Shown: positions 18,707 to 43,108 of the stretch, piece after piece
Layout: each line of letters begins with the position of its first letter
Numbering within the stretch: the stretch's first letter is position 1
DNA from: a virus
DNA length: 64,000 nt
IMG/VR virus record: IMGVR_UViG_3300020392_000009
Span: 1-64,000 of that record
Direction: 5' to 3' (one strand)
Program-made: the position numbers and the translations under genes
The notes under the pieces: generated by a model
Databases searched by the model: none
The model's input: only the letters and a program-made list of their open reading frames with translations
What the model was told of the DNA's origin: nothing

Positions 18707-21301
18707 TCATAATATCGAATTTCTAAAAGAAGAACGCCTATTTATTTTAAGACTAACCATTCTACCTATCTCATCAGCCATTCTTCTCATTTCTTCCTTA
18801 GAAGTATCTTTAGCATTGATGGTTATATTGAAATTATTTACAGTAGAACCCATCATCTGCCTAGATTGATTATTAGTATAAACCCTAGAACCCGCAGGTA
18901 ATTTAACTAATTCCGGCCCTCTTTCTCCAACAAGAGTTGTTTCTCCTAGTCCCACTATTCCTCCTCTTGCTTTTTCTTTTATACCTAAGAATTCCCCTAC
19001 TTTACTTAACCCACCACTAACCTTATCTTTTATTCCTTTTAGAATCTTAACCTGCAATACAGCGTCTTTAAGTTTCTCAACGGTTTCCTTAACACCATCC
19101 CTAACTATATCTTTAAGGAATTTATACACTACAAATCCTAATAAAGCCACTAACCAAACTTTTATTCCCAATATGAAAGCAACCACCATTACAATAGCCC
19201 CTGCCGCTACTGCTAGTTTTCCTTTTGTTGATAGGGCTTTGAATTTTTCCCCCAAAGTAACAACCAATCCGCCTATTATTCCTAAAGCAAAAGTAATTAT
19301 TGTTCCACCAAAAGTAATTAACAATCCAGCCGCTAATTGTAATAGTCCCCATGTTAGGGTAACTAAACTATTAACAAAATCAGTAATGCTACCATCTCCG
19401 AAAACCACATTCCAAAGTCCTTGTAGTCCTTCCCAAATAGTAAGAACAGCAGGTAATATCATACTAAGACCGAACAAGAACACCGTTTTAGCGGCTTCAA
19501 AGGCTTTCATTATAGTTGGGCCGATTAGTTTCAAGGTTATGAATAAAATCGCAATAAAGGCTAAGAAACCAAAGAACAACTTACTTACAAATCTAACACC
19601 AGTATAAATACTAAAACCAATAGACTTTATCATCTTTAATGGTTTATAGGTTTTAAATCTCAACTCCATTTTCTTTCTTTCTTTTGCTAGAAAACTTAAT
19701 GGTTCGCCCTGTTTATCTGTAGCCTCATTAATTAACTTTAACTGTGTCACAATTGCTTCATTTTGGCCTCTTGTTAATCCTTTTACCATAGCCGGAAATG
19801 ACCTTTTTATCGGGTCTGCCTTTGCTTTTATATTAAACATTTCATCGGCAGATATTCCTTTTCTAGTTCCTTCTCTTGTTATTTTTCCTATTTTATTTTC
19901 TGATAATGCAAGTTCTTTTTGTGCTTCTTTTATCTTTTTTTCTACTTTTAACATCTCTTTAAGTTTCTTTTTTCCGGCTGGCATCGAGTTTAGTTTTTTA
20001 TCTCTGTCTAGTTGTAATTGCGCTACCTTCTTTTCAGCATCCATTCTATCCTTCATGGCGGTTTTTAAGTTCTTAGTTTGCTCCTTTATGAGTTTCTTAT
20101 GGTCTTTTCTTTCTCCCATTTTATTTAGTCTTTCAGTAACTTGAACCTCGTAAAAAGATTTAATTCTGTTCTTTAGTTTTTTAGCCTCTATTTGTTCATT
20201 TAATTCTACTTCATATTCTGCTTGAGTTTTTCCTAGTTCTCTTAATTTATCGTAGTATAGTAACTTATTATTAAGAATCTCCGAATCCATATTTTCAGCA
20301 AGGCTAGATAGATAACTCATATTAGATTTTATTCCCATAAACATTTTTGGAATAAATTTCTTTATTGATTGAAGAGAAACAGTTCCTGTTTTTCCCTCTA
20401 GTTTTTCTTTGAAATCTTCCGGAGTAGTGTCACTTCCTATGTTCTGCCTTCCTAGCATAAATCCAGCACTTGTTATAAAACTGCTTTTCTTCTGTAATTC
20501 TCCTTCTTTTTTCAGGCTTTTCATAGTAGACTTATGAAGATTTTTTTGTAGTCTATGTTTTTTAGAAATTAACTTTATATTTTCAGTAAAAAATCCCAGT
20601 ATTCTTTTTTGACCCTTAAATTGGAATTTATACAATCCTAATGTTGCTTTTATTGCTTTTTGAGTTTTACTTTCAGTTTTTTCTGCTTGGTTTCCGGTTT
20701 GTTGAAGATTCTCTCTAATCATTCTAAGAGTGCTACCTACTAATTGTAGAGAGAACCCTATTTTACTTATAGCCCTAAAACCACCCGGAATAAATCCAAA
20801 AACAGCCCTTCTTATTTTAGCCGCTTCAAAGGTAGCGATTCTAATTTCTTCTCTACTAGAAGTTAAAAATTCTGCGAAGTATTCAAGAACGCTCCCGCCC
20901 TGTTTCTTATACTCTAGTAATGATTTACTACTAAATAATTCAAATTTTTTAGGTTTAGCCCTATTACTCAACGCCTTTAGAGTATTATTAAATATAGTAG
21001 TTCTTTTATTAGCCCTAGTAATCGCCACCCCAAGTTGAGTTACTTCATGGCCAAATTCATTTGTCTTTTTACTGCTTTCCTCAACAGTTTTATTGTTCTC
21101 TTTAAGGTTATTATCAAATTTTTCAATTCGCTTATCTAGTTTTTTAAATGTTTTATCGAATGCTTTTTCAGTATTTTTCAAGTGGTCTTGTAAAGTAGCC
21201 ATAGTTCCACTAATATTTTCTATTAGTTCGGGCAAACCCGCTAAACCTAATTTATTTAAATTAGCCTTTGCTTGTGCGGCCTTCATAGCCTTTACGCCCA
21301 T
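18707..21301 (-). CDS. tail tape measure protein
   Basis: Long helical protein with hydrophobic segments; C-terminal ARGGIV..TLVGERGPELV motif; follows chaperone pair. Confidence 0.8.
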   Translation of the reverse strand: MGVKAMKAAQAKANLNKLGLAGLPELIENISGTMATLQDHLKNTEKAFDKTFKKLDKRIEKFDNNLKENNKTVEESSKKTNEFGHEVTQLGVAITRANKRTTIFNNTLKALSNRAKPKKFELFSSKSLLEYKKQGGSVLEYFAEFLTSSREEIRIATFEAAKIRRAVFGFIPGGFRAISKIGFSLQLVGSTLRMIRENLQQTGNQAEKTESKTQKAIKATLGLYKFQFKGQKRILGFFTENIKLISKKHRLQKNLHKSTMKSLKKEGELQKKSSFITSAGFMLGRQNIGSDTTPEDFKEKLEGKTGTVSLQSIKKFIPKMFMGIKSNMSYLSSLAENMDSEILNNKLLYYDKLRELGKTQAEYEVELNEQIEAKKLKNRIKSFYEVQVTERLNKMGERKDHKKLIKEQTKNLKTAMKDRMDAEKKVAQLQLDRDKKLNSMPAGKKKLKEMLKVEKKIKEAQKELALSENKIGKITREGTRKGISADEMFNIKAKADPIKRSFPAMVKGLTRGQNEAIVTQLKLINEATDKQGEPLSFLAKERKKMELRFKTYKPLKMIKSIGFSIYTGVRFVSKLFFGFLAFIAILFITLKLIGPTIMKAFEAAKTVFLFGLSMILPAVLTIWEGLQGLWNVVFGDGSITDFVNSLVTLTWGLLQLAAGLLITFGGTIITFALGIIGGLVVTLGEKFKALSTKGKLAVAAGAIVMVVAFILGIKVWLVALLGFVVYKFLKDIVRDGVKETVEKLKDAVLQVKILKGIKDKVSGGLSKVGEFLGIKEKARGGIVGLGETTLVGERGPELVKLPAGSRVYTNNQSRQMMGSTVNNFNITINAKDTSKEEMRRMADEIGRMVSLKINRRSSFRNSIL

Positions 21302-24689: not shown

Positions 24690-26072
24690 TCAGTCCAAGA
24701 AATAAACTAAGTCCTTTTTTCCATTAAGAGTTTCCATAGCCTCTTTTCTAAGAATATCATATTTTTCTTTTGTAGAAATATTAGCCCCTGTTTCCGCCAC
24801 TAATATGCTTTGGTCATCGTGCCTTAGTATTTCAGCCGCTACTAATTTAGTTGTGGCTTCGTGTATTTGAGCAGGAACTCTTCCCTCTCCTGCTTCATAT
24901 GTTACTACAATAGAGTTCTTACTGTGGAAAGGATATTCCTGCATAAAGAATATTCTTCCTTCATCTGCAATAGTCCAAAAATCTCCTAGCCTTCTAACAT
25001 CCTCTTTGTCAGTAAATCGAGATACCGAACACACACTAGGAACATCTTGATTTACTGAAACAAAATTAAGTGTATTTGTTCCAGCAGTTATTCCTGAACC
25101 GCTATTTAAAACAACAGTAGTTGCATCTGTAATAGAACTAATTGTTTTAGTTCCTGTTATTCCCGTTCCGCTAACAACCATACCAACAGCAAGTTTTGAA
25201 GAATCTTCAACTGTAAGATTTGCAGAAGATAAAGTAGTAGTGCAAGTTTGTTGAGTTGTTATTTCTACTACACAATCAGAGCCATCATCTCCTGCCAATA
25301 AAGAAGAAATTAGAATATTACTTCCGCTACTTTTATCTTTTGAAGCATAGAAAAAGTCTGAAATAGATAGTTGACTGGTTGTATCTAGTAGTGACTTATG
25401 ATTTCTAGCCTTCGTGAAAGATTGAGTTTTACTAGGCTTTTCTTCATTAATTAGAGAAATAAGTTCATTAGCAGTAGTCTTTATTCCAAACGCATTGTTA
25501 AATTCGCTGTCTAATAATCTTGGAGAAGAAGTTGTAACTATTTTATTTGATGATTCCAAATTAAAAGAATAAGTGCTATTTGGTGTTTTAAGGGTTATTA
25601 TTTTTATTTCTGTATGATTTTCTAATAGTCTTATTTGCGCTTGAGCCGAAGCGAGTTCCTCATATTGACTACCCTGCCAAACTTGTAATGATACAATCTT
25701 TCTAACCTTTAATTTTGGTAGTTGTATAAATCCAACATAACCACCATAATAGGTATTCATTGGTAAGTTTTTAAATTGAAAATCGTGAAACTCATCTCTA
25801 GTAATTATAGGGCGATACGAACGCTTGGTTGTTTCATCAACTGTTCCTTCTATTCTTTTTATTATCTTACCTACTTGCGCTCTAGTAGGATAAGTTGTGT
25901 CGGTAAAATGCGCTATTTGTAACATATCTGCAACAGAAGCAAAGTCCGTGTAAAATCCTACTCCTTTGTCATATGCCCCAGTAAAAAATCCCAATGCTAT
26001 TGTATAGGTGGCAACCCCGTTTACATTCTCATCAAAAGAATAGTCGCTTGGAAATCCAGTTGTTCCCATCAA
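24690..26072 (-). CDS. head-tail adaptor (gp6/gp15-like) with insertions
   Basis: YTDFASVADML N-terminal helix; VVTYEAG..RVPAQIHEATTKLVAAEIL C-terminal motif. Confidence 0.7.
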   Translation of the reverse strand: MMGTTGFPSDYSFDENVNGVATYTIALGFFTGAYDKGVGFYTDFASVADMLQIAHFTDTTYPTRAQVGKIIKRIEGTVDETTKRSYRPIITRDEFHDFQFKNLPMNTYYGGYVGFIQLPKLKVRKIVSLQVWQGSQYEELASAQAQIRLLENHTEIKIITLKTPNSTYSFNLESSNKIVTTSSPRLLDSEFNNAFGIKTTANELISLINEEKPSKTQSFTKARNHKSLLDTTSQLSISDFFYASKDKSSGSNILISSLLAGDDGSDCVVEITTQQTCTTTLSSANLTVEDSSKLAVGMVVSGTGITGTKTISSITDATTVVLNSGSGITAGTNTLNFVSVNQDVPSVCSVSRFTDKEDVRRLGDFWTIADEGRIFFMQEYPFHSKNSIVVTYEAGEGRVPAQIHEATTKLVAAEILRHDDQSILVAETGANISTKEKYDILRKEAMETLNGKKDLVYFLD

Positions 26073-28429: not shown

Positions 28430-29086
28430 TCACATTAACCATTTAGCCCAAGCCGCACCTTTCTGTATTGCACTACCTAAACCTAAACCGCTTTGTGGTG
28501 GTTCATAACTCATTTGTCCTTGAGCATCTATCCAATATGGTCTACCATATCCATCTGTTCCGCTAGGTGGAATAGGATATCCACTACCATTATTCATAGC
28601 GCCCTGCACTTGTTGGTATTGTTGAGTTTGTCCTGTTATTCCTGCTATTGCCATACCTGCCGTTGGTTGTGTTGGCATTTGACCTCCTCCACTAAATCCT
28701 TGCGATTCTAAGTATTGTTGTTTTGCTAGTTTTCTTTGATTAACTACTTCTGTGTTAATAGCGGAGTTTAGGAGTTTTTGAATGTCTAAATCTATATTTT
28801 CCTGAGTAATCTTTTCGTATTCTCTAAGTGAATCAGCATTCACAATAATATTACTACCATTAGAAGTAAGTTTTAATTTTGCTAACATTTGACTAACCAC
28901 TCTTTCTATAACATCTTCCATCATCTGTTCTAAAGCCGTCAAAAACATTTCTCCGTGATATTGGAAAAATTCTTCTACATGATTATCTTGTAGAGAAAGT
29001 AGGTTGTTCATTGACTTGAAGTTATTTTGCTGACCTTGTTGAACAGCCCCTAAAACCGTTCCATTACTTGTTCCTAATATTCCCAC
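28430..29086 (-). CDS. Gln/Gly-rich protein with WW-like segment and amphipathic C-terminus
   Basis: DGYGRPYWIDAQGQMSYEPP; GAAWAKWLM end. Confidence 0.5.
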   Translation of the reverse strand: MGILGTSNGTVLGAVQQGQQNNFKSMNNLLSLQDNHVEEFFQYHGEMFLTALEQMMEDVIERVVSQMLAKLKLTSNGSNIIVNADSLREYEKITQENIDLDIQKLLNSAINTEVVNQRKLAKQQYLESQGFSGGGQMPTQPTAGMAIAGITGQTQQYQQVQGAMNNGSGYPIPPSGTDGYGRPYWIDAQGQMSYEPPQSGLGLGSAIQKGAAWAKWLM

Positions 29087-29088
29087 AT

Positions 29089-29766
29089 TTATTCCTCCAC
29101 GACTTCTTGACTAATTTCTTCCTTTACTTTTTTAATATCATCAACTTTAACTTCTTTATTTATCATTAAATAATTCAATCTATCTGTTAGTATATTTATT
29201 TCTCCAATTATCTCTACGGCTTCATTGGTCGCTGACCTGTTATCTCCTAAAGTTGGTGGCTTTATTAAATAACCGTTTGCTGTTAGTGCTACAATATCAT
29301 CCTTTGTTAGATTAGATACTGGGCCGCCTTTTAAAATCTTAGGCATTTTAGGCTTAAATGCCTTAAAATCTAAGCCATGCTTATCTGCTAATATTTGCTG
29401 TTGTAGCATTTCTAGTTGCATATACATTGAAGCATGTTTAGGGCAGTAAGTTCCCATTAATGGACGACCCTTTGTTACCTTATCTAGAGGAATAGGTGGC
29501 CTAAGATAATCTCCCGCTTCCCAAATATGGTGCATTCCACATACAACACATCTATCCTTGAGATTAAATTTTTTTCCATATCTTAGAAATAGTAACTTCT
29601 TAGGTTCTGCCTTTAAAACAGCAGTCAATTCTGCTAATTGTTTCTTAGGCTTGATAGCCATAAAGTGGTATTCCGTCACTGCTCCACTTGCTCTAGCCTG
29701 TTTGATAGGCGATAAACCTAAATTCATATTATTCGTCTGTGCTAACATCTGCTGATTTTGATACAT
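29089..29766 (-). CDS. putative Zn-binding protein
   Basis: RCVVCG...YCPKH (C2CH). Confidence 0.55.
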   Translation of the reverse strand: MYQNQQMLAQTNNMNLGLSPIKQARASGAVTEYHFMAIKPKKQLAELTAVLKAEPKKLLFLRYGKKFNLKDRCVVCGMHHIWEAGDYLRPPIPLDKVTKGRPLMGTYCPKHASMYMQLEMLQQQILADKHGLDFKAFKPKMPKILKGGPVSNLTKDDIVALTANGYLIKPPTLGDNRSATNEAVEIIGEINILTDRLNYLMINKEVKVDDIKKVKEEISQEVVEE

Positions 29767-29769
29767 CTT

Positions 29770-30336
29770 TTATTCCTCCAATTCTTTTCTCCAATTTTGA
29801 GACTCTCTCATTTCTTCTACTTGTTCGGGTGTAAGATACATAGCAGGGTGAATATTTGCTCCCATCATACCGAATCTTTCGATTATTTCTTTTTGCTTTT
29901 TATTAACAAATTGTTTTACTTGTGGATTTTCTTCAAAGGTCTTTATTTCAAAATGAGGGGGGTCGCCATATTGACCCAAAGTATAACCGTAAATAACATT
30001 CGTAGGAATATTAAATAAATAATCTTCTCCTAATCTTTCTTTATCTTGTTCATCAATACCAAAATATGTAATTGCATCTATGTTAATATCTACGGGGTTT
30101 CCGTCAAAATCTTCTCCGCCAAAATCGCCATCTACTAAATCTCTTAATGCCACATCGCCATCAATAGTCAGTGAATATTCTTTTGACATATATGTAATAT
30201 ATCCTCCAGAATCAAAAAATACCTTACTGTCTTTCCCGTATATTCTTTTGAGTTCGTCTAATATCTCTTTAGTTAAATCATCAATATATTTTTGAGCCGA
30301 AGCCCTATCCATTCTTTTTAATATATCAAACCACAT
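29770..30336 (-). CDS. acidic hypothetical protein with N-terminal WxDILK tag
   Basis: Starts MWFDILKR. Confidence 0.6.
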   Translation of the reverse strand: MWFDILKRMDRASAQKYIDDLTKEILDELKRIYGKDSKVFFDSGGYITYMSKEYSLTIDGDVALRDLVDGDFGGEDFDGNPVDINIDAITYFGIDEQDKERLGEDYLFNIPTNVIYGYTLGQYGDPPHFEIKTFEENPQVKQFVNKKQKEIIERFGMMGANIHPAMYLTPEQVEEMRESQNWRKELEE

Positions 30337-30341
30337 AACAA

Positions 30342-31004
30342 TCAATAATCCTTTATCATAGTAGTTATTCCTTTATACACCATTTCGGGGTCTGATTTTG
30401 CTGATACAATATATTTAAAACAAGGTATTCCCTTATCATTAAGTTGCCTCATACCATAAGAGAACGGCTCGAATATCTCATGTTTATCTATGGGCTTTTC
30501 ACTTTTATATTTATCTCCCCAAATGTCATATTTATTAGCCCAAATACCAACTGCCATAGGATAATCCGAATCTTTTTTCTTTCTACCAGTAGGCCAACGG
30601 CTAGCAACAATAGTATCTACTAAAAATTTCCATGCTACTTGGTGGTCTAAGTTTGATGGGTTATCTAAGTGTCTATGGTCTATCATAAATATAACATACT
30701 TTACTCTACGGGTTTGCATGTCTTTTACCCATTCTTTCCAATAAATCGCCTCTCCTCCAATATCAGCACTTTTTATTGTATGAGAGTCCCCATCTAATTT
30801 TATAGTTTTTCTAGAAGCCCTATGCAATCCCACCGTTCTTTTATTTATCTGAGGAACTTCTCCTCTAGTTCTTAATTGATAACTTAAGGTTGTTTTACCA
30901 ACCATAGTAGCACCATAAACACCAAAATTAATTGCGTGAATTTTTTTGTAAAAACCTATTATGGCTTCACCAACTAGTATGGCAAAGCCTGTCATTATTG
31001 ACAT
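30342..31004 (-). CDS. Ras-superfamily (Arf-like) small GTPase
   Basis: G1 GATMVGKT, G2 RTVG, G3 DIGG, G4 NKYD, G5 SAK; hydrophobic N-terminal helix. Confidence 0.85.
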   Translation of the reverse strand: MSIMTGFAILVGEAIIGFYKKIHAINFGVYGATMVGKTTLSYQLRTRGEVPQINKRTVGLHRASRKTIKLDGDSHTIKSADIGGEAIYWKEWVKDMQTRRVKYVIFMIDHRHLDNPSNLDHQVAWKFLVDTIVASRWPTGRKKKDSDYPMAVGIWANKYDIWGDKYKSEKPIDKHEIFEPFSYGMRQLNDKGIPCFKYIVSAKSDPEMVYKGITTMIKDY

Positions 31005-31009
31005 TAAAA

Positions 31010-31546
31010 TCACCCGAAGTATTTTTCTAATATTTTATCTATATGAAAAATCATTTCATTTTCAGTATCTATGTTGATAGGTAAACCAATAGCAGAAGCA
31101 ATATATGTTGCATTGAGATGAGTTAATCCATCATCAATTTCATCTTTCAAATTAACTATCAATTCCTTAACTCTAGAATCAGGTAAATATTTGTAATCTA
31201 TATTATCAAGAGAAATGCCTCTGGGCATTCCCATTTCTTTTTTGTTTCTTATATTTCTATTATCGGTGTATTCTCTATCGCCTTCTAGCCATTTCTCTTT
31301 ATTTGTTTTCAAGGCTTGCTTTATCATGGGTTTATCTTTTAATTTAATTCTATCACGGGAAGAACCAAAAATAGCATAAATTAATGCTTCATCTAAAGAA
31401 GGAGTCCAATATTCGGTATCTTCTTTTCCTTGTGTTCCTTGAAATAACTTATTGTAAGTATTAATGTAAGTTTCTGTTGGGTAATCATTTGAATCAAAAA
31501 TAGTAGATTGTATTTTGTAAGGTGATTTGAGAATGTCTTTCCACAT
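31010..31546 (-). CDS. WxDILK-tagged protein, possible ADP-ribosyltransferase-like fold
   Basis: Starts MWKDILKS; KLFQGT...YWTPSLDEALIYA resembles ART strand 1/2 motifs (function low confidence). Confidence 0.45.
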   Translation of the reverse strand: MWKDILKSPYKIQSTIFDSNDYPTETYINTYNKLFQGTQGKEDTEYWTPSLDEALIYAIFGSSRDRIKLKDKPMIKQALKTNKEKWLEGDREYTDNRNIRNKKEMGMPRGISLDNIDYKYLPDSRVKELIVNLKDEIDDGLTHLNATYIASAIGLPINIDTENEMIFHIDKILEKYFG

Positions 31547-31547
31547 A

Positions 31548-31766
31548 TTAATGACTCCAAATATCTTTAGCCCTCTCTATAATCCAACCCATTATATTAA
31601 TGTCAAAGACTCCCATAATATTACCAACTAAGAACATAGACAAAGTAGAAAAACCTCCCCAAAACCATGCTCTCATTTTCAAAAAGAAAATGTCTGCTGA
31701 GTGCGCTCTAGATTGATTATAGGCGTAGTCAGAATCAGAAAAGCCCATTATATCTCCAAGAACCAT
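31548..31766 (-). CDS. small membrane protein
   Basis: Hydrophobic AWFWGGFSTLSMFLVGNIMGVF segment; GGGTGG RBS. Confidence 0.6.
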   Translation of the reverse strand: MVLGDIMGFSDSDYAYNQSRAHSADIFFLKMRAWFWGGFSTLSMFLVGNIMGVFDINIMGWIIERAKDIWSH

Positions 31767-31777
31767 TTAGCCACCCC

Positions 31778-32167
31778 TCATTGAAGGACTGCTAAAAACT
31801 CATTACTAACGGTATTTTCATCGTTTTCATTCTGATTTGCTGAATAGGTAAAACTAGTATTATATTGCTTTGCGCTTTCAGCCATCTTTCTTCTCTGTTG
31901 GTCATCCCTAGCCTTTCTTTCCCAAAACGCAGAAATCTTTCTATCTAGTAGCCAAATTTCTATCTTGTCATTTAGGGCTAAATCAAACAAAGCCTTCATT
32001 ACCATAATTGCTCCTATTGTTCCTAGTCCAAATAATACAGAATGTGCTAAAGCACCATAAGGAAAACCAGTTCCTATTTTAGCATAAGCAAATACATTAG
32101 CCCCACTTACTGCTCCAACAAAAAGTATAGTCATTACTAATCTAGTATCTTGATTTAAAACCGCCAT
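31778..32167 (-). CDS. two-TM membrane protein (holin-like candidate)
   Basis: Two hydrophobic helices then charged tail; GAGG RBS. Confidence 0.55.
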   Translation of the reverse strand: MAVLNQDTRLVMTILFVGAVSGANVFAYAKIGTGFPYGALAHSVLFGLGTIGAIMVMKALFDLALNDKIEIWLLDRKISAFWERKARDDQQRRKMAESAKQYNTSFTYSANQNENDENTVSNEFLAVLQ

Positions 32168-32176
32168 TGTAAAACC

Positions 32177-32458
32177 TCATGAGAACTCAATAGAACAAGC
32201 CACTGCACCACTTACTTCCTCGAAAAATAATCCATTTTCACAAAGAACAGAATGCATATCAAACTCTATCGTTTGTCCCGAAGATAGTTTTAATCTCGCT
32301 ATTTCTTTTCCGGAGTTACTAGTTCCATCAAATACTTTTACTTCTGCTGTGCTACCACCTACTTCGCAAGCATGAATAGAAACTAATCTACAACTACCAT
32401 CAAAGACAATAGCATCTGCTGTCAATACTCCGCTTGTTCTACAACCACCGCTAGGCAT
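32177..32458 (-). CDS. small beta-sandwich virion protein
   Basis: 93 aa, all-beta pattern, downstream of capsid genes. Confidence 0.5.
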   Translation of the reverse strand: MPSGGCRTSGVLTADAIVFDGSCRLVSIHACEVGGSTAEVKVFDGTSNSGKEIARLKLSSGQTIEFDMHSVLCENGLFFEEVSGAVACSIEFS

Positions 32459-32491
32459 ATTATCTCCTCAAACAGCGTTAGTTACAATACC

Positions 32492-32505
32492 TATTATAAC
32501 TTTCC
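32492..32505 (-). promoter_or_regulatory. candidate archaeal promoter (BRE + TATA: GGAAAG TTATAATA)
   Basis: In one of the few intergenic gaps, about 35 nt upstream of the 32458 start. Confidence 0.35.
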
Positions 32506-33457: not shown

Positions 33458-34843
33458 TCAAAGTAGATTTGTAATCTTACCCTGTCCTCTAAAGTATGAA
33501 CAACCAGTTTCACCAATAGTTCGGTAAAGTGCTTGGTTTCCTAGAGTTCCAACACCGAATGGGTTTCCGTTACTAATACCATCTTCAAAGTATTGAGTTG
33601 GTTTCATAACTGATAACCACAAATGGTCAGTATCTAGAATCAACATATCAGAAAGTCCAGTAGATAGAGAGTGGTGCTTTGTTGATGGCATAGCCGCAAC
33701 AGGAATTAGTGGGATATCGTAATAAGTAGAAACTCTAAATCCAACTTCTTGACCCTTTACACCACGAACACCGTTTACGGTTGGCACAATTTCTTTACCG
33801 TCCATGAATCTTTCTTGTGCTTGTAGCAAATCACTCAATGTTTGTAGAGTATCATATCCAGTTAGTATAACTTTTGGAGAACCACCGTTTTGTCGAATCT
33901 CTCTTAGAGTTTGGTTAATCAAACTTAGAGTCAAAGACCTTTGGCCACTTGCTGAGTAAGTTCCGTCATTTACAACTGCATTCATGAAAGAAGAGTTTGT
34001 TCCTGCTCTATCGCTGTTACCGAATAGAGTAGAAGTTTCTGCCTTTCCATTTGTCAAATCAGTATCGTCAAATGTTCCATTCTTAATCAAGTCGTTTGCT
34101 TTCATGTTTTGTAGTTCTGCGTTGCTTGAAACAATCTTTAGTAGAGAAGTATAGTTTCTTTCAATTGTAGTAACGCCCGAAGTAATTCCTCCATCAAAGT
34201 CATAGGCTTCTAGAGGCATAACTAGCATTTGGTTCTGAACTTCTGCATGGTGCTTACCCATATCTTCACGCATTTGCGCTCTAATGTCGCCAATACCATC
34301 ATCAATTTGTGCAAGTTCCATAGCAAGTTCGCTGAACTCAAATTGATGTGCAATAATCTTTGGGCTTGTAAATAGGGTAGAATACTTTGGTGCAATAGAA
34401 AACAATCCATCAGCATTAGTTCCTAGTTTAGCATTTTCAGGAACACCACCAATTAAATCTGCTTTAAGTGAACTTGCTCCAACAAGTGCATCAGAGTTTG
34501 ATGCTGTAGAATCAAGGTCAATAGATAGTGAATTTCCGCTACCACCAGCAGGTCTTTCTACCAATACTCTCCAACCACTTGAAACATAAGGTCTCTTTGA
34601 AATAACTGAAAGTGCATTACATTCTCTGTTTAGCATTGACCAAACTTTTTGACCAAATACTCGGTTATACAAAGCAGACCTATCTCCTATTGATGAAGTT
34701 CCGCTTCCTACTCCTAATGTGGTATCATGGCCACTGTGTAGTGCTTGAACTGCACCACTTTGTTTTAGCAATTGACCGCTAATGCCCGATAATCCGTATG
34801 TCTGTCTTTCTAAATCTGCTATTGTGTTAATATATCCTGTCAT
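33458..34843 (-). CDS. major capsid protein (HK97 fold)
   Basis: Follows protease-scaffold; YNRVFGQKVWSMLN, PKIIAHQFEFSE, GGSPKVILTG, GKITNL terminus like halovirus/magrovirus MCPs. Confidence 0.88.
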   Translation of the reverse strand: MTGYINTIADLERQTYGLSGISGQLLKQSGAVQALHSGHDTTLGVGSGTSSIGDRSALYNRVFGQKVWSMLNRECNALSVISKRPYVSSGWRVLVERPAGGSGNSLSIDLDSTASNSDALVGASSLKADLIGGVPENAKLGTNADGLFSIAPKYSTLFTSPKIIAHQFEFSELAMELAQIDDGIGDIRAQMREDMGKHHAEVQNQMLVMPLEAYDFDGGITSGVTTIERNYTSLLKIVSSNAELQNMKANDLIKNGTFDDTDLTNGKAETSTLFGNSDRAGTNSSFMNAVVNDGTYSASGQRSLTLSLINQTLREIRQNGGSPKVILTGYDTLQTLSDLLQAQERFMDGKEIVPTVNGVRGVKGQEVGFRVSTYYDIPLIPVAAMPSTKHHSLSTGLSDMLILDTDHLWLSVMKPTQYFEDGISNGNPFGVGTLGNQALYRTIGETGCSYFRGQGKITNLL

Positions 34844-34844
34844 C

Positions 34845-36140
34845 TTAATAACCTCCTACCATTTTGTGAATCTCTGACCAATCCATTTCAGCCAAATCTT
34901 CCATACTTGGGAGTTCTTCTTCTGCCGCCTTTTGTGCCTTTAGAATTGTTTCTTTTTCAGCAGTCAAAGACTTTCTTAGTTGAGTAAACTCATCTTTTAG
35001 AGATGCTATTTCGGCTTGAGCATCATATTGTGACTTTGCCAAAACATTTTCTCGGTTTGCTTTTTCTGCGTTAAATCTTGCACTAAATTGCTTTTCTAGG
35101 TTATCTAGAGCAATCTTTTCTAGTTGCTCTTGTCGGAAAGACTCGTATGCTTTCTCGATATTTAGGTTAGAAAGGTTTAGTGTATCTAATTCATTATTGT
35201 TAAATGCTTTAACAACAGGAAGTCCACTTGGCTTAGGATTGCCATTATCAATAACAATTCTATCAGCAGGTTCTCCAATTTCGACACCTGCTCCGTCTAA
35301 TGTAGCAACATAGGCTTTATCTGCCATTTTGTCACCATATGCACCTCTTTCCATGTCATCGGTAGGGACATCTTGCATTCTTTCCATGTCTTTCATTCTT
35401 TCCATGTCTTTCATCCTTTCCATGTCTTTCATAGATTCTTTTTCATCATCCATGTTTTCCATCATATTCTCATCTTCCATAGACTCTTTCATGGATTCTT
35501 TATCCTCCATCATTTCAGTGTCCATCATTTCGGCTTCTTCTTTTCGTAGCGTATTGACTTGCTCCATTAGAGTGTCAAGTTCCGCCAATGCTTTTTCTAA
35601 CTTGCTCATATTTTTCACCTGTTTATCTTGCTTTAAAATATCAAATCTTGCTTCGGGATTTATTCCTTTTTCACAAATTGTTACCTCATGCAATTCCAGT
35701 TTGCTTATTTCATTGTAATCTCCTAACTCCGGATGACTTTTCTTTACTTTTTGTAATGCCTGTCCTCCTATGCTAAATGACCTCAATGAACCTTTTCTTA
35801 CGCCTCTTCCTATTTCTTTGGCTTTTTCTATATCATCTCTTAACTTAATTACTACGAAGAAACCAACATCATCTACTTCTGTTTTCCACAATCTCCCCGT
35901 TTTATCTCGATATGATTTTACTACTTCTCCAACTTGAACATTTGAGTGATTTGTCATTACATTTCTAAATTTTGGATTCTGCATATATTTTACTACTGCT
36001 TCTTCTAGAGCCTTTAGTGTAATTAAATCGTTTTGTTTGTCTACGATTTCTATGCTTGCATATCCTCCAATCATTAAATCTTGATTACTTTTTAAGATGC
36101 TAAAGTCGTTGGCTCTATTACTTATCACCGCAGAACTCAT
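34845..36140 (-). CDS. prohead protease (HK97-family) fused to scaffold domain
   Basis: GYAS..VDKQND, NHSNVQVG (His), SFSIGG (Ser), LHEVTICEKGINPEA; acidic coiled-coil C-terminal half ending MDWSEIHKMVGGY. Confidence 0.9.
   Translation of the reverse strand: MSSAVISNRANDFSILKSNQDLMIGGYASIEIVDKQNDLITLKALEEAVVKYMQNPKFRNVMTNHSNVQVGEVVKSYRDKTGRLWKTEVDDVGFFVVIKLRDDIEKAKEIGRGVRKGSLRSFSIGGQALQKVKKSHPELGDYNEISKLELHEVTICEKGINPEARFDILKQDKQVKNMSKLEKALAELDTLMEQVNTLRKEEAEMMDTEMMEDKESMKESMEDENMMENMDDEKESMKDMERMKDMERMKDMERMQDVPTDDMERGAYGDKMADKAYVATLDGAGVEIGEPADRIVIDNGNPKPSGLPVVKAFNNNELDTLNLSNLNIEKAYESFRQEQLEKIALDNLEKQFSARFNAEKANRENVLAKSQYDAQAEIASLKDEFTQLRKSLTAEKETILKAQKAAEEELPSMEDLAEMDWSEIHKMVGGY
35379..35432 (-). 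repeat. 3 x 18-bp coding tandem repeat (MKDMER)
   Basis: TCTTTCCATGTCTTTCAT twice exact, third copy with one mismatch, in scaffold linker. Confidence 0.9.
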
Positions 36141-36197: not shown

Positions 36198-38687
36198 TTA
36201 TTTTGGTATTTTAACAGAATTAAATTTATCTTCGTAAATATCCCAAATACCTTCATCTCCGGCTTTATCGGCAGGTTTTTGTTTATATCCAGTCCATGCT
36301 AGCCACATCTTTTTATCCTCAACAGGTAAATATCTAATATGTAACTTAGTTTCAAATTTGTTACCTTCTAAGAAATATTCGTGATATCCATTTCGTTGTA
36401 TTCCTAATTTTATCTTACCGTAATCAATGGTTTTTTTGTTTTGAACATTTTCTGAAACTTCGGCAGGGTATTTGCCTGCCGCACCAAATAAATCAAATAG
36501 TTCTTTTTCATCATCAACCTCAATAGTCCAGTGTAAATTTTTATCTTTTAATCTAATTGAAAATTGTATATTGTTATCTTTTCTAAGCGATATTTTGAAT
36601 TCGCCCTCTCTATATTTTTCAGGAGTTTCATATTTTTTAATTTCGTCTGCACCAAATTTAAATTCGGGGTCTGCCTTTATTTTATTGCTCTGTCCTTCTA
36701 ATATCGGTTCTCGTTGAACAGCCCAATCTCTTAGTTTACTTTGTTTAGCATCTAGTATATCTTGATACAAACTTCTATGATTAGTTATTAAGAATTCATG
36801 TAGTTGTCGAGTTGTTTGCTCTCCCTTCTTAGTTAGGAATTGATGAATAGCCGCAGTAAGTTCTCCCTGTTTTGTTTTCATTATCTCTATCGCTTTGCTT
36901 TTCCACATATCTAAATCTGCTAAAGCATTCTTTGACATTAAATTGTTTTCTTCAAAGCCATAAAGGGTAAAACCATTCATATCATATTTGAGAATAGCAG
37001 TAGTTTCTCCATGAACATAATCTGTTACCTTGATTCCTTTTTCCAATGCTGAAACATCATAGTTCAAAGACTTCTTTGTGTCTTTAGCAAGCATGGCTAA
37101 AGTAACTAATTTATCCGGATATTCTACTTCCGGAACTTCAATTACCTTAGCAGAAAATAAAGAGTAGCCGTTAGCCGTTTTCTTAACTTCATCTACCTTT
37201 ACTCTAATTATATCCCCGACATCAACTGCTATCTTAGTGTTTAGTGCTTTGCCTACATCTAGATATCTTATATCGTCTATTTCAACAGTATTAGGTATAT
37301 CGTCTAATATTGGGCCAACTCCTACACTATAAGAATGCAAGCCACTTTTTGTCTTAGTTTTACTAAGAACTACTACATCTAAGTCTACAAACTTTTTCCA
37401 TTTGACCCATTTAGGGTTCTTTTTAGTTCCCACATAATATATTGAAGTAATGTCTTTTATCATGACTCCTTCCGCAGTAGGAATATCCATTATGTCTTTA
37501 GAGTATTCCGCTACCTCCTTAATTGAATCAGCAAAGCGAGTATCTTTCTTTGAGGGGAAAAGTAGAACATCAGAAGAGTGCTGTGAATAATTATTAAACA
37601 GAGTCCTAATTCTACTATCTAATTCTTCTTCTAATAACATTTGAGAATCATGCCTCATAATATCAAAGACATGGGCTTTTAGAGTGGCTTCAGGATATTT
37701 ATTTTTAAATACATGAGCAATTGTATCAGCCCGATGCAGTGCTTCTTTACCATCAAATAGAATTAGTTCTGCATCCAAAATACACTCTCCGAAGTGTTTT
37801 GCTTTTAATTCTCTAACTATATCTTTACACTTTTCAGTAATGTCTTTTTGATTATATGAGTATATCTTTATATTACCGTCTATTTTATGCAGTTGTATTC
37901 TCATACCGTCATACTTTTCTTGAACAATATATTCTCCACTAAATCCTTTTAGTTCGTTCATATCATTTATCTCAAATATTCTATACATTGGTTTGTTGGG
38001 AATAATAAAGTCGCTTTGGGCTTTTTCTGCTTTCTTCATATCAATATCTAAAAGTTCATCCCAATCTTCTTCACTGTGTTGTGAAAAGTAAATTAACTCT
38101 AACATATCCATAGCGGCTTTAACTTTGGATTTGACCTTTTTAGAATCTTTATCATCACCATAGTTTTCTATTATGTATAGTGCCACATCATCCGGTTCTA
38201 AATCTAGTCCTGCTAGTCCATCGGTCAAAGTATCTTCTTCCATATCTTTTATTTGTAGGGTTTCTTTTCCTAGTGCATGAGTGTTATCTCTGATAGCATA
38301 ATGAACAAACTTAACCATAGATTCAGGATTATCTAGTAACTCTTCTAAGACACCTTCTCCAAATCTTTTAGCAAATGGGTCTATAACGACATCCGATTTA
38401 TATCTAATAAGTTTAATATCTTCATAAAGTTCTCTTGCTTGAGGAGATGTGGGGTCACTAACATCTTGATGTTCTAATAGATTCCTTTCTATAAAGTTCT
38501 TTAATTCTCTGCCTGCTACATTTAATTTATCATAAGATTCTCTAACTTGCTCTACAGCCTTTCTCCATTTGTGACCGTATTCTTTAGGGTCACTATTAGC
38601 AGATAAAAAGGCCACTCTAGTTATCTCAAATAATTTTACTAACTCTACCGATGAACGCTTGTCTTTTTCAAAAGAGCCGAGTTTCAA
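36198..38687 (-). CDS. lig: ATP-dependent DNA ligase with N- and C-terminal extra domains
   Basis: QEKYDGMR (motif I), LDAEL, HVFDI, EGVMIK, WVKWKK, OB fold. Confidence 0.9.
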   Translation of the reverse strand: MKLGSFEKDKRSSVELVKLFEITRVAFLSANSDPKEYGHKWRKAVEQVRESYDKLNVAGRELKNFIERNLLEHQDVSDPTSPQARELYEDIKLIRYKSDVVIDPFAKRFGEGVLEELLDNPESMVKFVHYAIRDNTHALGKETLQIKDMEEDTLTDGLAGLDLEPDDVALYIIENYGDDKDSKKVKSKVKAAMDMLELIYFSQHSEEDWDELLDIDMKKAEKAQSDFIIPNKPMYRIFEINDMNELKGFSGEYIVQEKYDGMRIQLHKIDGNIKIYSYNQKDITEKCKDIVRELKAKHFGECILDAELILFDGKEALHRADTIAHVFKNKYPEATLKAHVFDIMRHDSQMLLEEELDSRIRTLFNNYSQHSSDVLLFPSKKDTRFADSIKEVAEYSKDIMDIPTAEGVMIKDITSIYYVGTKKNPKWVKWKKFVDLDVVVLSKTKTKSGLHSYSVGVGPILDDIPNTVEIDDIRYLDVGKALNTKIAVDVGDIIRVKVDEVKKTANGYSLFSAKVIEVPEVEYPDKLVTLAMLAKDTKKSLNYDVSALEKGIKVTDYVHGETTAILKYDMNGFTLYGFEENNLMSKNALADLDMWKSKAIEIMKTKQGELTAAIHQFLTKKGEQTTRQLHEFLITNHRSLYQDILDAKQSKLRDWAVQREPILEGQSNKIKADPEFKFGADEIKKYETPEKYREGEFKISLRKDNNIQFSIRLKDKNLHWTIEVDDEKELFDLFGAAGKYPAEVSENVQNKKTIDYGKIKLGIQRNGYHEYFLEGNKFETKLHIRYLPVEDKKMWLAWTGYKQKPADKAGDEGIWDIYEDKFNSVKIPK

Positions 38688-41252: not shown

Positions 41253-41477
41253 CTAGAATGGAATATTTTCTTTTTTTCCTCTCTGTTTAGGTGGAAGAGT
41301 TATCACATCGGGGATATCCGCACTACTAGGCCTTGATTTTGGTGTAGTGTCTTTTGGCAGTCCTACACTAAAATCTCTATTTTTAGTAGTCTTTCTACTT
41401 TCGTTATTATTAGCGGCTCTTACCTGTGCCAACTCTTTTCTTAGTCTTATTTCTTTTTGTCTATTATCTTCGGTCAT
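41253..41477 (-). CDS. hypothetical protein
   Basis: 74 aa, ATGA-coupled to portal. Confidence 0.55.
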   Translation of the reverse strand: MTEDNRQKEIRLRKELAQVRAANNNESRKTTKNRDFSVGLPKDTTPKSRPSSADIPDVITLPPKQRGKKENIPF

Positions 41478-43108
41478 GGTATTCTCCTCTCACTTCTTCT
41501 ATCTACATTTTGATTGCCAGCATCTTCGGGTAATCCTGTTAGTCGCTTATCCGGCCCTACACTCATAGAAGGTTTATTTCTTGTGGTTGCTGGATTTTCT
41601 TGTTTCTTTGAACCTTGTAATTGTTGTTCTTGCATTTGCCCCAATTGGCTTGCATCAATATTAGTTCCCGCATAAGGGTCTAATTCGACTTCATCTTCAC
41701 TAGAACCTTCTTGTGGAGGTTCTTCAACAGGTTCAGGCTTTTTGAAAGTAAAGTTTCCATCTTCATCCATTTCAACTTCAAAACCTAGATTCTTAGTAGA
41801 GGCCGCAATATTAACTTCGATTTCTCTTTTTCTTAATACTGCTATTTCATCTTCTTCTTCGCTCGGTGGTAGTTTTAGATTCCAGTCAGTAATGCCAAAT
41901 TGCTTAACTAAAAATGGAAATACATAATTGTTGTAAACATTCTGTGCCATTTGAACGGCTCTATTAGTTACTAATATCTGCATACCCTCATTATTCAATC
42001 CGCCACTAGTAGTATTATCTGCCATAAACACTTTACTAACCCCAAAGAAAGCAGAAATTCTATCTCTTAAATCATCCTTAACAGAAACATACTCCATTTC
42101 TTTTAGACTATCCATAAATTTAATCCATTCTACTGAACCTTTACCTTCTGCTTCTATACCCATAATAGGAATAAAGTGAGGGTCTTGTTCCATCTTTTCT
42201 TTTACGGCTTTCCAAAAAGATTGCATGGAGTCCATGTTTCTAGTTTGAACTGCTAATAATCCTCTAGGCATACGGCTCTTAGTGTAAGATGAATTAACAT
42301 AGTTCTCCATAGCAATAAGAGTCATTATATTATTAAATAAAGTAACAATAGGAGACTGACCATATAATCTAGAAGGACTATATTTACTAAAATGTAATAC
42401 TTCTCCTTTCAAGAAATACTGTTCTTCTCCAGTTGCCCTATTAACATAATGAACAGGGAATGTCTTAGCACCACACTGTTCACAAGGAACATGAGCGTCT
42501 TTTGAGAAAAATTCTCTATGATTAACACAAGTAAAAGCACTATTTCCTCTTTCTCCATATTCATCAGTGTAGATATACATTGTTGCAGGGTCGCCACGAT
42601 ATACTTCTTTGATTCGATGCATTCTAATATCACCATTACCATCTAAAAAGTATTCTTTTACCAATACGATGTAAGCGTCATCCATAACATTTAGGTCATC
42701 CTCTAATTGTTTTAGCACATCAATAAACAACTGCTCTGATTTATTGACATATCCCTCAATAAACTCCTCTGCATATTTTAGTTGGTCTACATCCGGAACT
42801 TTTAGTTTTTCACTACCACATCTAGAACATTCAGAGACAGGCCTTTGGTGTTTCTTTTTACAGTTTAAACACATAGCCTCGTATGCCTTTTCCCAAACAT
42901 ACCCTCTACGAAATATCTCTTGCTTTAATTGAGTAATACAGGTTCTAACAATTACCGACTGATTTACTATGTGGTAAATTAAAGGGGCAGTCATATGATA
43001 GGTATTTGGCCTCTCTTGTATTCCTATATTGTAGATTTGCCTATCAGCAGGTTTAGGAGTAGTTCTTCTAAATAAATTCCTAATTGAGAATCGTCTTTGC
43101 TCAACCAT
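41474..43108 (-). CDS. portal protein with two Zn-finger insertions
   Basis: EVLHF..YSPSRLYGQSPI, MPRGLL, RISAFFGVS portal motifs; CLNC..CSRC and CVNH..CEQC. Confidence 0.88.
   Translation of the reverse strand: MVEQRRFSIRNLFRRTTPKPADRQIYNIGIQERPNTYHMTAPLIYHIVNQSVIVRTCITQLKQEIFRRGYVWEKAYEAMCLNCKKKHQRPVSECSRCGSEKLKVPDVDQLKYAEEFIEGYVNKSEQLFIDVLKQLEDDLNVMDDAYIVLVKEYFLDGNGDIRMHRIKEVYRGDPATMYIYTDEYGERGNSAFTCVNHREFFSKDAHVPCEQCGAKTFPVHYVNRATGEEQYFLKGEVLHFSKYSPSRLYGQSPIVTLFNNIMTLIAMENYVNSSYTKSRMPRGLLAVQTRNMDSMQSFWKAVKEKMEQDPHFIPIMGIEAEGKGSVEWIKFMDSLKEMEYVSVKDDLRDRISAFFGVSKVFMADNTTSGGLNNEGMQILVTNRAVQMAQNVYNNYVFPFLVKQFGITDWNLKLPPSEEEDEIAVLRKREIEVNIAASTKNLGFEVEMDEDGNFTFKKPEPVEEPPQEGSSEDEVELDPYAGTNIDASQLGQMQEQQLQGSKKQENPATTRNKPSMSVGPDKRLTGLPEDAGNQNVDRRSERRIP

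Follow-up and report, generated by a model that had tools for sequence, protein, structure and literature searches.

A conserved five-gene cassette around a putatively membrane-anchored Arf-like GTPase in magroviruses

What is a small GTPase doing among the virion genes of a tailed virus of archaea? Arf-type small GTPases are the master switches of eukaryotic membrane traffic, and a first-pass annotation, made from the sequence alone, had placed one within a cluster of membrane proteins at positions 28430–32167 of a 64,000-nucleotide (nt) stretch of virus record IMGVR_UViG_3300020392_000009 (hereafter the window). CheckV estimated the record, of 91,671 bases, to be 99% complete; the window takes up its first 64 kb, and all the open reading frames (ORFs) of that annotation were recovered in place on the minus strand (Table 1). 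Five of them constitute a conserved cassette, in the order protein with two transmembrane segments, small transmembrane protein, GTPase, protein with a putative zinc (Zn) site, and Gln/Gly-rich protein. We consider it probable that this cassette is a late-acting, membrane-bound GTPase switch module with dedicated partners, which works on the host membrane. The virus is a magrovirus, i.e. a tailed virus of Marine Group II ocean archaea, as had been proposed, since its structural block contains a second ligase, a feature described for the group (PMC5434244).

Synteny across magroviruses, put forward by the first-pass annotation as a check, was analysed in three lineages. For lineage A, which includes the window, ORFs were called in 80 close loci (GTPase identity 83–98%) and related by iterative search. 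The order was major capsid protein (MCP), genes of 192, 114 and 93 residues, the 129-residue and 72-residue transmembrane proteins, the GTPase, the 225-residue Zn-site protein, the 218-residue Gln/Gly-rich protein, genes of 783, 460 and 176 residues, and the tail tube. The cassette genes were present in 72–80 of these loci, most of the misses being attributed to the ends of contigs. Within the cassette, the median gaps were only 0–11 nt, which suggests translational coupling. Lineage B was represented by a second set of 80 loci, with GTPases ~35% identical to that of the window, and showed a transmembrane protein (178–201 residues), a small transmembrane protein (~80), the GTPase, the Zn-site protein (294–340), the Gln-rich protein (~200) and a protein with two transmembrane segments (~85). 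Upstream of it stands either a giant ORF of 2,200–2,700 residues (e.g. directly before the cassette in L118:1497-8108, L111:37-8109 and L084:317-7714) or a run of small genes, and downstream come a helix-turn-helix protein, three large ORFs and the large terminase. In lineage C, the same order directly follows a chaperonin gene and precedes further membrane proteins.

The three core genes, encoding the GTPase, the Zn-site protein and the Gln/Gly-rich protein, are demonstrably homologous in sequence across all three lineages. With lineage B or C as the starting point, iterative searching recovered the Zn-site protein of the window (3.5e-47) and likewise its Gln-rich protein (3.7e-30 and 3.9e-77, respectively), for which hhalign between lineages additionally gave a colinear, weak match over 74 columns. 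The Zn-site gene lies downstream of the GTPase in 73 of the 80 lineage-A loci and in all 80 of lineage B, and was also found in lineage C. Chance adjacency was excluded, as the order is repeated in more than 160 loci of three lineages. Because the internal order is kept while the neighbours change, there is good evidence that the cassette is a self-contained functional module. The co-conservation anticipated earlier was thus observed, and the placement between capsid and neck genes stood only in part: in the window the MCP lies upstream and the tail tube downstream, the "neck" identity of the intervening genes found no support, and the position itself is not fixed, as the flanks differ in lineages B and C.

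This setting also bears on the possibility that the cassette aids morphogenesis. The anchored GTPase and its partners would then provide a membrane platform on which the head, neck or tail is built or packaging takes place, or a checkpoint for these processes, much as prohead assembly begins at the inner membrane in some phages. The cassette is found between the MCP and tail-tube genes on the same strand and likely the same transcript in lineage A, a few genes upstream of the large terminase in lineage B, and after a chaperonin in lineage C. However, assembly genes usually keep their place within a module, whereas the cassette moves as a block between lineages, and searches of Pfam, PHROGs and PDB sequences revealed no resemblance of its proteins to head, neck or tail proteins or assembly chaperones already described. 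We therefore regard an assembly function as unlikely.

The central protein was next assigned by motifs, profiles and structure. The ATG at 31004, at which relatives and the Atlas record start, is the likely start codon, which shortens the 223-residue ORF to 220 residues. Its motifs occur in order as G1 GATMVGKTT, G2 RT (switch I region), G3 DIGGE, G4 NKYD and G5 SAK, so that the succession of G1, G3, G4 and G5 typical of Ras-superfamily (TRAFAC class) small GTPases is present, together with the fold of a small G domain. When 183 distinct lineage-A and 72 lineage-B sequences (255 in total, with ~30% identity between lineages) were compared, G1, DxGG, NKxD and the switch-I Arg-Thr were invariant. 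DxGG is followed by Glu in all but one of the 183 lineage-A proteins (182), which confirms the earlier reading of G3 as DIGGE rather than DxxGQ. In lineage B, the residue at this point is Gln in 47 proteins, Glu in 18, Asp in six and His in one, and we take Gln to be the older state, as it is the commonest residue there. Three lineage-C-type relatives (P0137, P0153 and P0156) have His at this position, as does Sar1. Of note, an (I/V)DHRH motif after strand 4 (IDHRH in the window, residues 111–115, ~30669–30683) is nearly invariant in lineage A, and D112 and R114 are present in all 255 sequences; we know of no counterpart in Arf or Ras.

In Pfam searches, the window GTPase alone stayed below every GTPase threshold (best match MMR_HSR1, 16.9 bits versus a cut-off of 21.9) and gave no match to Arf (PF00025). 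The Arf model did score above its gathering threshold in two bridging singletons, P0170 (57.2 bits, 1.9e-15) and P0160 (27.2 bits, 3.1e-06). It matched six of 18 diverse family members at E<=0.1, and sub-threshold SRPRB matches were found in five of the 18. A profile of these 18 members retrieved Rab33B (best, 8e-9), an Asgard GTP-binding protein (8oun), K-Ras/H-Ras and Arl3 from the PDB, for which the single sequence had yielded nothing significant, only chance matches to ulilysin. The AlphaFold2 (AF2) model was of good quality, with a predicted local distance difference test (pLDDT) value of 84.3 and a predicted template-modelling score (pTM) of 0.81. Foldseek returned small GTPases throughout (E ~1e-9), with the top template-modelling scores for Arf6 and Arf1. 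In a structural ranking by Z, Arf and Arl proteins occupied the top 39 places (17.3–18.7), with Rab within ~1 Z unit, so that structure alone leaves other Ras-like families possible. Language-model neighbours outside viruses were mostly prokaryotic and often annotated as Arf. We conclude that the window protein is a very divergent Arf-like member of the Ras superfamily. The complete G1–G5 Arf-like GTPase of the first-pass annotation was accordingly borne out by the structure, the DxGG form of G3 and the Pfam Arf matches of the bridging relatives. Compared with the Arf family proper (Arf1, Arf6, Arl1, Arl3, Arl8 and Asgard ArfR1, PDB 8OUM), to which it is ~20% identical, it has Glu for the catalytic Gln, a uniformly hydrophobic helix, and no myristoylation-type Gly2 context.

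The family is small and isolated, as only 64 relatives were retrieved in a scan of 1.84 billion representative proteins. Homologues reside on marine viral contigs of 60–118 kb, and among them is a protein of Poseidoniales virus YSH_150918 (76% identity), which RefSeq lists as hypothetical; the automatic annotation of the Joint Genome Institute calls some homologues "GTPase SAR1 family protein". Queries with P0170, P0160 and P0133 found no viral loci, and P0170 is a singleton without neighbours in the protein database. Searches of 50,697 phage records with the GTPases of the three lineages (tblastn) and with the region (blastn) gave no match, in a set that may lack near-identical records. The GTPase is not mentioned in three magrovirus papers (PMC5434244, PMC10160649 and PMC11706807), and full-text literature searches combining magrovirus or Poseidoniales with GTPase found nothing relevant. 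Among 185,579 cellular species genomes, a single homologue was detected (84% identity), on a 12.2-kb contig (L161, NZMJ01000024.1) of a Maricaulis (Alphaproteobacteria) metagenome-assembled genome, which we read as mis-binned magrovirus DNA.

This distribution speaks to a second alternative, namely that the viral GTPase mimics or jams a small-GTPase pathway of the host (vesicles, division or secretion), or blocks superinfection. Archaea do form vesicles by means of an Arf-like GTPase and accessory proteins, and the replacement of Gln by Glu in nearly all lineage-A proteins, with the nucleotide-binding motifs kept, could lock or retune such a switch. Nevertheless, genes for host takeover are usually early and variable, whereas the cassette is conserved and packed among late genes; apart from the mis-binned-looking contig, the cellular genomes yielded no close homologue; and the cassette carries partners of its own, not host-like ones such as OapB and OapC. 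This makes takeover or exclusion quite improbable, and we return to a switch of the virus' own as the favoured reading.

How the GTPase might reach a membrane is suggested by its N-terminus. The helix preceding the G domain of the window protein has a mean Kyte–Doolittle (KD) hydropathy of 2.15 over 18 residues and a hydrophobic moment (muH) of 0.17. All members of the family carry, ahead of the first strand, a stretch of 15–20 hydrophobic residues and then basic ones, with moments of 0.05–0.29 in the other members. The hydrophobic helix seen by the first-pass annotation is therefore real, and its equation with the membrane-bending helices of Arf and Sar did not hold, the helix being uniformly hydrophobic rather than of the amphipathic Arf type. 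It looks like a fixed anchor, nearer to that of SR-beta than to the amphipathic helices of Arf/Sar1. The architecture, a membrane anchor (putative in the virus) at the N-terminus and then a G domain related to Arf/Sar, is shared with SR-beta. It differs from SR-beta in the absence of an above-threshold SRPRB match, in the absence of an SR-alpha-like partner, and in its viral late-gene context.

The constant downstream partner of the GTPase, the 225-residue protein, had been described as C2CH Zn-binding. Residues C73, G77, G100, T106-Y107-C108-P109 and H111 are invariant, and R101 nearly so. The first half-site reads CxxCG throughout lineage A and CxxDGC in most of lineage B, with the second Cys missing in approximately one fifth of the latter; the second, TYCPxH, is found in all but one (a lineage-C sequence) of 158 homologues. 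The conserved Cys/His motif was thus upheld, and the strict C2CH pattern was not, as the second Cys is shifted or missing in some lineage-B proteins. On these motifs, Zn binding is plausible. A database of 5.8 billion proteins contained 917 relatives, all unnamed and on contigs of magrovirus size, and a Pfam domain was found in none of them. The family profile detected no relatives among PDB sequences, and the ESM Atlas gave no usable match. The AF2 model was poor (pLDDT 65, pTM 0.41), and the predicted complex with the GTPase scored 0.00, which is uninformative in either direction.

The third core protein, of 218 residues, contains 12% Gln and 11.5% Gly, and its Trp-rich C-terminal helix is moderately amphipathic (muH 0.35), an ending that is not kept in lineages B and C. 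The Gln-rich composition and amphipathic end of the first-pass description were consequently retained, and its "WW-like segment" was rejected, as Pfam gave no domain support. Searches of PDB sequences with this protein and with the 460- and 783-residue proteins found no match.

Upstream of the GTPase, two co-oriented membrane proteins had been proposed, and hydrophobic segments were indeed found, two in the 129-residue protein and one in the 72-residue protein. The C-terminal 69 residues of the former are charged (22 of 69, with 10 Lys or Arg and 12 Asp or Glu), an architecture that may be called holin-like by a loose, non-specific criterion. The gene of the 72-residue protein abuts the start of the GTPase in most relatives (gap 0–1 nt). 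In a hydropathy scan of the 119 predicted genes, 12 had hydrophobic segments, and the GTPase and the two transmembrane genes were the only run of three, setting aside a passenger described below. Transmembrane proteins hold the same positions in lineages B and C. The larger one is homologous between B and C and not detectably so with the 129-residue protein of the window by iterative searches, and the small transmembrane proteins of the lineages are positional equivalents only.

The only sizeable gap (median 52 nt) between the MCP and the 783-residue gene precedes the 93-residue gene and contains the sequence TTATAATA. An AT-rich box at this position is conserved in 47 distinct relatives, and TTATAATA fits an archaeal TATA box, hence a candidate promoter, as earlier suggested for ~32495. 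Metatranscriptome contigs from a marine study covered parts of the MCP, protease and 192-residue genes, along with two short bins of the cassette, too sparsely to reveal cassette transcription or its start. The 93-residue gene ends 9 nt upstream of the 129-residue gene, and its product matched nothing in Pfam or PHROGs and had no homologue in lineages B or C; its membership in the cassette is uncertain.

Table 1. Coordinates of the cassette, its candidate control elements, inserted genes and structural neighbours in the window.
Feature	Coordinates	Strand	Remarks
Tape measure	18707-21301	-	beyond tail tube
Tail tube, 618 residues	22079-23935	-	Pfam Phage_tube_2; downstream of cassette
Gln/Gly-rich protein, 218 residues	28430-29086	-	third conserved core gene; helical middle, amphipathic Trp-rich end
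Zn-site protein (putative), 225 residues	29089-29766	-	CxxCG...GR...TYCPxH; constant downstream partner of GTPase
Accessory gene, 191-residue ORF	29770-30345	-	between GTPase and Zn-site gene; likely start 30336, giving MWFDILK
Arf-like small GTPase	30342-31013	-	ORF of 223 residues; putative N-terminal hydrophobic anchor; assigned by motifs, profile and AF2 model
Accessory gene, 178 residues	31010-31546	-	starts MWKDILK; between 72-residue transmembrane gene and GTPase
Small transmembrane protein, 72 residues	31548-31766	-	one hydrophobic segment, amphipathic tail (muH 0.44); in 78/80 close loci
Protein with two transmembrane segments, 129 residues	31778-32167	-	hydrophobic segments at ~residues 9-30 and 38-60; in 77/80 close loci
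93-residue protein	32177-32458	-	no transmembrane segment; first gene after candidate promoter; in 75/80 close loci
Ribosome-binding site GAGGAG	32463-32468	-	between TATA-like box and 93-residue gene
TATA-like box TTATAATA	32492-32499	-	~37 nt 5' of ATG of 93-residue gene
Major capsid protein (MCP)	33458-34843	-	upstream of cassette
Prohead protease	34845-36140	-	structural block
ATP-dependent ligase	36198-38687	-	structural block
Portal	41474-43108	-	structural block

Along the minus strand, the structural block runs from the portal through the ligase, prohead protease and MCP to the run of small genes that includes the cassette, followed by the 783- and 460-residue genes, the tail tube and the tape measure. 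In iterative searches, the 460-residue gene (24690-26072, minus strand) and the tail-tube gene recovered each other; they look like paralogues and could represent two tube-like or tube-plus-sheath-like proteins.

Two accessory genes of 178 and 191 residues within 28430–32167, overlooked by the first-pass annotation, interrupt the cassette on either side of the GTPase. The 178-residue protein has no Pfam or PHROG match, and both genes have homologues in only three of the 80 close loci. At each of the two junctions in the window, 6 nt separate a stop codon from the next ATG. A few other loci have extra stretches of 252 or 582 nt there (in four loci, a 582-nt gap at the junction of the GTPase and the Zn-site gene). 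From the rarity of the two genes and the inserts at the same sites elsewhere, it follows that both junctions are insertion hot spots, and the two genes are passengers outside the conserved cassette. Of note, many lineage-B proteins have a short AW..LK-type motif at or near an end (LENAWTTLK, QQAWVLLK, EEAWAIIK; e.g. L142:2817-8041 and L111:14378-17418), which resembles the W..ILK tag of the window's lineage.

In a third alternative, the virion carries the membrane proteins and the GTPase into the next host, where they open a channel or prepare the cell for infection. The cassette does sit inside the block of virion genes, and genes tagged with MW.DILK, if this is taken as a putative capsid-targeting signal, were inserted at both sides of the GTPase. 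The MW[KF]DILK tag, however, is found at the N-terminus of none of the five cassette proteins, the tagged genes are passengers by their presence in so few relatives, and a hydrophobic, anchored GTPase would be odd cargo for a capsid, so that delivery with the virion appears very improbable.

For the favoured reading of a switch at the host membrane, a mechanism can be outlined. The cassette genes would be transcribed with the virion genes from the TATA-like promoter at ~32495, and the GTPase would be tethered to the cytoplasmic side of the host membrane through the hydrophobic helix at its N-terminus, after which comes Lys-Lys. It would cycle between GTP and GDP under the control of two dedicated soluble partners, the Zn-site and Gln/Gly-rich proteins. 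The former may act like a GTPase-activating protein (GAP) through the nearly invariant Gly-Arg between its two putative metal half-sites, and such a role would carry most weight in the lineage of the window, in which the catalytic Gln is Glu. The switch would in turn control the two small membrane proteins encoded upstream, such that the host membrane is remodelled or breached late in infection, most likely for the release of virions from a host that lacks murein. This explanation as a whole, i.e. a conserved magrovirus cassette around a membrane-anchored Arf-like GTPase that acts in this manner, is held tentatively. Egress as its specific purpose is our leading guess, possible and nonetheless rather doubtful.

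Two analogies favour the explanation. A 2024 review calls the main players in the egress machinery of tailed archaeal viruses "completely uncharacterized", and transmembrane segments with a charged C-terminal part are among the loose hallmarks of holins (PMC10791045). Holin lysis cassettes of phages share with the magrovirus cassette small membrane proteins with a charged C-terminal part, and a compact, movable block of kept order in or next to the late genes, so a module of fixed order and changing position would behave as they do. They differ from it in having an endolysin, and the GTPase and its two soluble partners have no counterpart in known lysis cassettes. The other analogy is with Haloferax volcanii, in which vesicle formation depends on ArvA (OapA), an Arf-like GTPase encoded with ArvB (DUF2073, SepF-like fold) and ArvC (DUF2072, Zn ribbon), the latter possibly a GAP according to the authors (PMC10927574). 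In that species, the driver of membrane vesiculation is thus a GTPase of Arf type that has a Zn-ribbon partner. In design, the resemblance to the viral set is striking, and the common features are a GTPase whose best single-sequence Pfam match is MMR_HSR1, two small partners of which one is zinc-binding (putatively so in the virus), and, for the ArvA system, action on the membrane. In contrast to that of the viral protein, the helix of ArvA is amphipathic, and membrane proteins encoded next to ArvA have not been reported.

Several points weigh against the favoured reading. Models of ArvB (OapB, PF09846) and ArvC (OapC, PF09845) had no match at E<=1 in six-frame searches of four magrovirus genomes from three lineages, in which the Haloferax controls were positive. 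The cassette may hence work like ArvABC, yet is not a detectable member of that system by the Pfam models of the partners, so the link to the haloarchaeal vesicle system drawn by the first-pass annotation did not extend to them. More generally, the partners could not be linked to any described family through Pfam, PHROGs or PDB sequences, nor, for the Zn-site protein, through the ESM Atlas, and hhalign did not support homology between the membrane proteins of lineages A and B. The cassette proteins of the three lineages had no match to a Pfam or PHROG family of the lysis category or of holins. Other small genes with two or three transmembrane segments lie outside the window on the minus strand (66392-66613, 71884-72141 and 81614-82072) and are alternative holin-like candidates. 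The remark that no endolysin is recognizable in the window was borne out for the entire genome of 91.7 kb, in which six-frame searches for four muralytic families (Amidase_2, Amidase_3, Phage_lysozyme and Peptidase_M23) found none. This absence is expected for any virus of a host without murein and consequently lends the cassette little weight. Finally, an assembly role would account just as well for the location of the cassette among virion genes, and a function in egress or lysis is something that we purely infer.

A bolder version, which we offer as a doubtful one, sees in the cassette the release machinery that has been missing for tailed archaeal viruses. Lysis or egress would then be gated by GTP, in a system unlike any lysis cassette of bacteriophages. 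If the release reading is true, a membrane-anchored Arf-like GTPase with a Zn-site regulator of its own would time or drive two membrane-breaching proteins. Were the cassette to serve assembly or host control instead, a GTPase switch would still be unusual in a tailed virus of prokaryotes, and the family extends the history of Arf-like GTPases by a viral branch. Magroviruses rank with the most abundant viruses of the surface ocean, and their hosts are uncultured. A virus-owned, putatively membrane-anchored Arf-like GTPase with dedicated partners offers a defined set of five genes to express and assay, for which no culture of the host is needed.

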